From NCBI RefSeq assembly GCF_046105845.1, contig NZ_CP151004.1: a stretch of DNA of 64,000 bases. One strand, 5' to 3'. Below are positions 12,231 through 12,949 of the stretch, piece after piece (position 1 is the stretch's first letter; each line of letters starts with the position of its first letter). The notes beneath the pieces were generated by a model. It was not told the DNA's origin, did no database searches, and saw only the letters and a program-made list of their open reading frames with translations. The stretch comes from Escherichia coli (lineage in GTDB: Bacteria > Pseudomonadota > Gammaproteobacteria > Enterobacterales > Enterobacteriaceae). Both the position numbers and the translations under genes were made by a program.

Positions 12231-12614
12231 ATCGCACGTCTCTTCTCCTTGCGACACCGGCAGGACACCGGGCGCTTATGGTCGGCAAGCGACGTCCCTG
12301 TAGCAAGGCAAACCATCGCTTCACGTGAGATGCTGAAAACGAAAGCTCATCCTTCTGCACTGGCGCACGTCGCCAGAAAGTATTGTTAATAAAGCGTAGT
12401 GAAACTTTTGCACAAAACAATACAAACTGTATGGATTTATCTTTTAGCGATAAAAATGGACCTATTTTTCTTTGGCCGGGCGATGGGGATGTTTAGCCGG
12501 TTGCTAAACGAGTAAAAGAGAAGGAATTCATGGTGATGAAATGATCAATCTGCTGTTATTTCACGCTATCAATGCACTTTTGGCTGTTTTTCAGGCAAAC
12601 AAACAAATTAGGGG

Positions 12615-12643
12615 TTTACACGCCGCATCGGGATGTTTATAGT
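12615..12643 (+). promoter_or_regulatory. sigma70 promoter of serT
   Basis: TTTACA-17 bp-TATAGT followed by GC-rich discriminator GCGCGTC, about 12 nt upstream of the mature tRNA 5' end. Confidence 0.6.
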
Positions 12644-12655
12644 GCGCGTCATTCC

Positions 12656-12743
12656 GGAAGTGTGGCCGAGCGGTTGAAGGCACCGGTCTTGAAAACCGGC
12701 GACCCGAAAGGGTTCCAGAGTTCGAATCTCTGCGCTTCCGCCA
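12656..12743 (+). tRNA. serT: tRNA-Ser (anticodon UGA)
   Basis: 88-nt GGAAGTGTGGCCGAGCGG...TTCGAATCTCTGCGCTTCCGCCA; anticodon loop CTTGAAA; long variable arm; encoded CCA end. Confidence 0.93.
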
Positions 12744-12752
12744 AATAAGATA

Positions 12753-12784
12753 AGGGGTTAGCTAAATGCTAACCCCTTTTTCTT
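12753..12784 (+). terminator. Rho-independent terminator of serT
   Basis: AGGGGTTAGC-taaat-GCTAACCCCT followed by TTTTT. Confidence 0.75.
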
Positions 12785-12949
12785 TTGCCTGTCGAAATTC
12801 TCAGGGCGTTATATTTGCTTAATGACCTGATAATCCGCTGTTAAACCTGTTCCAGATCAAATGCGTAAAGATGGGTAAAACTTCTGGGTGCCCTTACGCA
12901 TTATCATTATGCTGCTTAATTAATTACATCTGTCATAGAGAGTGACTCA

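Follow-up and report, generated by a model that had tools for sequence, protein, structure and literature searches.

The serT tRNA locus in a 64-kb segment of an Escherichia coli chromosome is an empty integration site

Introduction

The tRNA gene serT is used as an insertion point by several kinds of mobile DNA. It is a prophage site in some O121:H19 STEC (PMC8767318), the site of an Stx2f prophage in Escherichia albertii (PMC10673567), and the insertion site of SPI-5 in Salmonella (PMC9861973, PMC10373206). A serT gene lies between hyaA and yccA in the 64,000-nt stretch of E. coli DNA analysed here (hereafter the window). This raised the question of whether the locus carries an integrated element, whether it retains the scar of a former one, or whether it is simply the native chromosomal site. 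We examined the gene and its expression signals, searched the window for the marks of integration, compared the locus with occupied serT sites and with other genera, and accounted for the DNA on both sides of the tRNA.

Results

serT is a complete, stand-alone transcription unit

The sole tRNA gene found by ARAGORN in the 64-kb window was a tRNA-Ser with anticodon tga, and it was assigned to serT, tRNA-Ser(UGA), an 88-nt gene at 12656-12743 on the plus strand. The Rfam tRNA model (RF00005) matched it with 57.5 bits (E 4.6e-11; gathering score 29), and both programs supported a cloverleaf with a long variable arm and a UGA anticodon. The gene was 100% identical to K-12 serT (b0971), and the hyaA-serT-yccA synteny also matched K-12. 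An identical 88-mer was found in 62 species-representative genomes. Three further Rfam matches (sX4, ctRNA_p42d, and an S4 leader) had E values of 0.24-0.76, far under their gathering thresholds, and were discarded as noise.

A promoter was placed at 12615-12650 on the plus strand, consisting of a -35 element TTTACA (12615-12620), a 17-nt spacer, a -10 element TATAGT (12638-12643), and a GC-rich discriminator GCGCGTC (12644-12650). The hexamers agreed with 10 of the 12 consensus sigma-70 positions in the promoter scan, and the mature 5' end of the tRNA lay 12 nt past the -10 element. By itself the scan did not exceed chance: it returned 2 sites in 1 kb, and shuffled sequences gave 1.7 +/- 1.4. 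Since the scan match was not exceptional, the promoter call was based on position and conservation. For the latter, the upstream regions that aligned without indels, 49 in all and from many enterobacterial genera, were taken from 62 other-species loci with the identical 88-nt tRNA, and the two hexamers were invariant or nearly so among them. The comparison gave good support to the predicted promoter, which by its sequence is a correctly placed sigma-70 promoter of the stable-RNA type with a GC-rich discriminator. Such a promoter would initiate about 5-6 nt ahead of the mature serT 5' end, and it may be subject to stringent control.

Downstream of the tRNA, an intrinsic terminator with an 11-bp stem, a 5-nt loop, and a T tract was located at 12752-12787 on the plus strand. 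In the terminator scan, the hairpin (12752-12778) contained 6 G-C pairs among its 11 bp and was followed by TTTCTTTT. The folded RNA had a predicted energy of -21.6 kcal/mol (z = -5.85), a value equalled by none of 200 shuffles. The GC-rich hairpin and U tract thus identify this element as a predicted Rho-independent terminator, and the strong hairpin followed by the T tract would stop the serT transcript short of yccA. The first-pass annotation had described an intact promoter (TTTACA-17-TATAGT with a GC-rich discriminator), an intact 3' CCA end, and a terminator belonging to the tRNA. All of these were recovered: the promoter at 12615-12650, an encoded CCA in the gene that ends at 12743, and the 11-bp stem with its T tract.

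Conservation upstream of the promoter was also considered as a sign of a hidden small gene. An ORF pair was present there, in which the 4-codon MVMK* (12531-12545) was preceded by a good Shine-Dalgarno sequence and its stop overlapped the start of a 33-aa hydrophobic ORF (12541-12642). The second ORF runs into the serT promoter, and its frame was open in many genera. Among the 49 sequences, however, its variability was 0.247, 0.187, and 0.211 at codon positions 1, 2, and 3, giving no third-position excess; the start was ATG in 19 of 49, and internal stops occurred in 6 of 49. With no coding signature, the candidate was rejected, and the conservation is probably better read as that of promoter-upstream DNA.

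Taken together, the locus is almost certainly a native stand-alone serT transcription unit of the E. coli chromosome in its empty-site state.

No integrated element was found at serT

A second copy of the tRNA 3' end was sought throughout the window. Neither the terminal 24 nt of serT, with 3 mismatches allowed, nor its terminal 15 nt, with 2 allowed, recurred in the 64 kb. When the tRNA with its terminator, or the 65-nt attachment core described below, was used as a blastn-short query, only chance matches of 12 nt or less were returned from the window. A repeat search of the window likewise yielded no family involving the tRNA. The flanks contained nothing similar to the Sp4-type serT integrase in tblastn at E values up to 10, and none of their short ORFs matched Pfam.

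There was also no extra DNA relative to an empty-site reference, the locus being contiguous with K-12 and this uninterrupted arrangement being shared by 4,660 of the 5,425 complete E. coli genomes that matched. From 12200 to 12980, 778 of 782 positions were identical to E. coli K-12 MG1655. The 4 differences were three substitutions and one 1-nt deletion, and all of them fell on the hyaA side of 12531, in the hyaA leader and the hya regulatory DNA; from serT through yccA there were zero differences. The whole window was colinear with MG1655 1,044,363-980,180 at 97.4% identity, and it therefore derives from another E. coli lineage.

The only sizeable break in colinearity with K-12 was the absence of about 150 bp at window position ~59859-59869, all other indels being 12 bp or shorter. 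The missing segment corresponds to K-12 984,320-984,483 in the gloC-aspC intergenic region. Elsewhere in the window, the elf/ycb fimbrial operon region (38000-48000) showed 93-95% identity to K-12 compared to 97-99% for the remainder, and ompF (57943-58178) had 3-nt and 12-nt indels relative to K-12.

None of the three marks of an integrated element, namely an integrase or its remnant, a repeat of the tRNA 3' end, and extra DNA, was thus present here. Because the core was single-copy and the DNA was contiguous with K-12, we concluded that no element is integrated, and we hold with very high confidence that the serT site is unoccupied. A past integration followed by precise excision would leave no trace and would be invisible here. 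This is the canonical empty serT locus of E. coli, which is already known and ordinary. The reading proposed at first pass, in which serT carries no integrated element and no direct repeat of its 3' end lies nearby, was therefore borne out by the single-copy 3' end, the contiguity with K-12, and the lack of an integrase match, and the absence of the repeat held across 64 kb in both the mismatch search and blastn-short. Of the two checks proposed with it, the search for a second copy of the last 15-20 nt of serT returned none in the window, and the comparison with strains occupied at serT (O145 RM9154-C1 and O157:H7 Sakai) revealed no insertion feature shared with the window.

Occupied serT sites define the attachment core

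Complete E. coli genomes, of which 5,425 gave a match, showed how an occupied site appears. About 765 of the 5,425 (14%) were split roughly 45 nt past the tRNA, a proportion drawn from RefSeq complete genomes, in which pathogenic lineages are over-represented, and which is not a population frequency. The 64-nt 3' segment of serT occurred at 6,263 places in those genomes, equivalent to about 840 extra copies. In 742 of the split genomes, an Sp4-type integrase, attR, and the yccA flank were contiguous, and since these genomes share the integrase type at the yccA flank, one integrase family explains nearly all of the occupancy.

Two strains illustrated the arrangement. In O145 RM9154-C1, a 46,819-bp lambdoid prophage lay between serT and yccA, with the tyrosine integrase at its yccA end and, at its serT end, the effector genes tccP2 and espV, and 65 nt of the 3' part of serT were duplicated. 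In O157:H7 Sakai, the serT-yccA position was annotated as 'prophage Sp4, lambda-like phage', with integrase ECs_1055 adjoining yccA. We found no publication treating serT, Sp4, and O157 jointly, and the Sp4 assignment is that of the Sakai RefSeq annotation. An uninterrupted attP was carried by phage Evi (LR597642.1).

Alignment of attB, attP, attL, and attR delimited a 65-nt core, which in the window occupies 12684-12748 on the plus strand. Starting at tRNA position 29 and stopping 5 nt past the CCA, it takes in the 60 3'-terminal nucleotides of the gene. The core was identical at 65 of 65 positions among the window attB, the Evi attP, and the O145 attL and attR, and one intact copy was present here. 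Past the core, the phage arm brings its own terminator-like hairpin and TTGGTATA repeats, whereas the window has the chromosomal terminator. As judged from this identity, 12684-12748 is the predicted, unoccupied attB of Sp4/Evi-type tyrosine integrases, and the site could in principle be lysogenised.

Lambda-like phages of the Sp4/Evi type use this core for attachment. Because the phage attP holds an identical 65-nt copy, integration rebuilds an intact tRNA at attL, and after recombination by the tyrosine integrase a 3' fragment of serT remains beside the integrase at attR. The exact crossover point in the core is proposed from its boundaries: since the core begins in the anticodon stem, crossover probably takes place in the anticodon-loop region.

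Several other serT loci were of interest in their own right. In Escherichia albertii NBRC 107761 (locus L008), a phage-type arm nearly identical to the O145 attL directly followed serT, and the contig ended 546 nt further on; judging by this arm, serT in the E. albertii type strain appears to be occupied by an Sp4-like prophage. The attL phage arm with its own terminator-like hairpin was seen at L001:21045-21131 and L005:4227-4310. The terminators following serT in Citrobacter, Salmonella, Kosakonia, and other genera (L010-L068) were closer to this phage-type hairpin than to the Escherichia chromosomal one. The repeats in the arm after serT differed by locus, being either TTGGTATA or AGAATAT, a difference pointing to the use of serT by several integrase families. 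About 6.7 kb downstream of serT, Enterobacter sp. MGH 24 has another serT-like stretch with a promoter region (L014:9121-9273), and an island there may be bracketed by two full gene copies. Finally, NZ_CP098186.1 (L002), a 27-kb record named 'plasmid pZ0117ECO0133-3', was made up of the chromosomal genes yccS to yccA and the integrase end of a serT prophage. As most of its genes were frameshifted, the record resembles a contig of low quality or wrong assignment more than a plasmid.

The serT cassette is inverted in Escherichia

The sequences conserved around serT in other genera formed a unit of about 260 bp (12531-12790, plus strand), comprising the conserved upstream region, the promoter, the tRNA, and the terminator. 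This cassette was defined by blastn and by a 62-locus synteny table. In 39 non-Escherichia loci (Salmonella, Citrobacter, Klebsiella, Enterobacter, Kosakonia, Cedecea, and others), yccA was located upstream of serT and on the opposite strand. The Escherichia order was hyaA(-) serT(+) yccA(+), as observed in E. coli, E. whittamii, and Escherichia sp., and for the hya side only in E. albertii. Blastn against Citrobacter and Salmonella aligned 12527/12531-12785/12790 and 12843-13100 in opposite orientations. The cassette of about 260 bp is therefore inverted in Escherichia, with the 3' end of serT facing yccA. The sequence comparison thus makes it well supported that the cassette has been conserved as one unit across Enterobacteriaceae and that it is inverted relative to yccA in Escherichia. 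Among the papers searched, none named both serT and yccA.

We further considered whether the inversion belonged to a larger event in an ancestor of Escherichia, by which the cassette was inverted and the hya-app block was put where other genera hold serT-linked islands, so that the hya side would be an old serT-linked acquisition. The inversion would also have turned the integration-prone 3' end of serT toward yccA and away from the variable region. The rearranged part of this proposal agrees with the position of yccA in the 39 loci and with the reversal of 12531-12790 relative to the yccA region. Moreover, hyaA adjoined serT in Escherichia only, and the DNA past serT on the side away from yccA was unrelated between genera and often opened with an integrase match. 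However, site-specific recombination directed by serT does not explain the inversion, whose breakpoints fall outside the att core. A distant serT fragment marking hya-app as an old island was looked for, together with an integrase and an att repeat, and none turned up in the window or, in O145, over the 20 kb between torS and hyaA. The GC content of hya-app (0.53-0.57) also carried no foreign signature. As tblastx found no shared genes beyond serT between genera, the ancestral neighbour of serT could not be identified. We consider the link of hya-app to the serT inversion to be speculation and rather improbable, a judgement that applies to the island link only, the inversion itself being well supported. 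If the link were true, the locus would record an ancient serT-associated acquisition or rearrangement.

The flanks of serT are accounted for by hya and yccA regulatory DNA

The serT unit is separated from its neighbours by short intergenic flanks. On the left, hyaA (hydrogenase-1 small subunit, 11112-12230, minus strand) is colinear with the 1119-bp K-12 gene. The ORF list stretches it to a GTG, ending at 12257, and the 1119-bp K-12 gene puts the true ATG at 12230. On the right, yccA (FtsH protease modulator) occupies 12950-13609 on the plus strand, as an ORF and under the K-12/RefSeq annotation. The flanks accordingly measure 425 bp on the hyaA side (12231-12655) and 206 bp on the yccA side (12744-12949). 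The sizes of about 400 and 200 bp given at first pass fit these values, but the hya-side start at 12258 did not stand, as it was set by the end of the GTG-extended hyaA ORF; the flank begins at 12231.

The hya-proximal DNA (12231-12530, no strand assigned) lies outside the serT cassette and in blastn did not match the DNA around serT in other genera. Comparison with K-12 and published AppY ChIP-seq data identify it as the hya regulatory region. An AppY summit was reported for hyaA at K-12 1,031,990 (PMC10057817), which is 149 bp upstream of the hyaA ATG and corresponds to about 12379 in the window. IscR has also been described as acting at the hyaA promoter (PMC8561392).

The yccA regulatory region (12843-12949, plus strand) was recognised by its homology to the upstream regions of yccA in Citrobacter and Salmonella, the 107 bp ahead of the yccA ATG being conserved in both by blastn. 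It includes a perfect CpxR-type box, GTAAA-N5-GTAAA, at 12865-12879 (GTAAAGATGGGTAAA), 71 nt upstream of the yccA ATG. This was the single match to the pattern in 64 kb, against 0.14 expected, and the box is retained in Citrobacter and Salmonella. yccA has been described as Cpx-regulated (PMC8831704), and the predicted box fits that report. A spacer of 53 bp (12790-12842) had no assigned role, and little else was left over. Both short flanks are thus ordinary regulatory DNA for hya and yccA.

The flanks were finally examined for what an earlier island or prophage might have left in decayed form, for instance a degraded att repeat or a pseudogene of an integrase. One observation pointed that way: a direct repeat matching at 19 of 24 positions brackets serT (12460-12483 and 12772-12795), and when the 719-bp intergenic DNA was shuffled by dinucleotides, 19/24 was reached just once in 200 trials. 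The repeat, however, is rich in T tract and includes no part of the tRNA 3' end. In gapped alignment of one flank against the other, the observed score was reached by 14-32 of 300 shuffles and was not significant. We therefore rejected this repeat as a scar, since it was borderline without gaps and not significant with them; it is probably a chance match driven by the T tract. Integrase remnants in the flanks were rejected as candidates as well, tblastn showing no integrase similarity and Pfam no match in any ORF. Moreover, the terminator past the core is of the Escherichia chromosomal type and not of the type found on the phage arm at attL, the DNA from serT to yccA is the same as in K-12, and regulatory DNA of hya and yccA is recognisable in the flanks. 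A decayed element at this site is therefore very improbable, and the native empty locus is the reading that we retain.

Discussion

The analysis correctly reports an absence at a tRNA gene well known as a hot spot of integration, a result that carries little weight by itself. Its use lies in what it supplies for comparison. The attB core at 12684-12748 is an exact empty-site reference for spotting Sp4-like prophages at serT that carry effectors such as TccP2 and EspV. In this strain, the serT site appears intact from its sequence, and lysogeny would be possible in principle. The opposite orientation of the cassette in Escherichia compared to other Enterobacteriaceae is now documented, and this orientation decides whether an incoming element parts the tRNA from yccA or from the variable side.

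Among known systems, the closest is the serT (b0971) locus of K-12, which has the same gene order, orientation, tRNA, terminator, and serT-yccA spacer as the window. The attB used by Sp4, the O145 prophages, and Evi has the same 65-nt core as the window. Compared to occupied sites of the Sp4/Evi type, the window differs in having one copy of the core, no integrase, and no phage arm. Salmonella SPI-5 uses the same tRNA, and two subspecies of S. enterica, arizonae and diarizonae, have the identical 88-mer. The Salmonella gene diverges from yccA and points its 3' end toward the island, whereas in the window the cassette is inverted, its 3' end points toward yccA, and the site holds no island.
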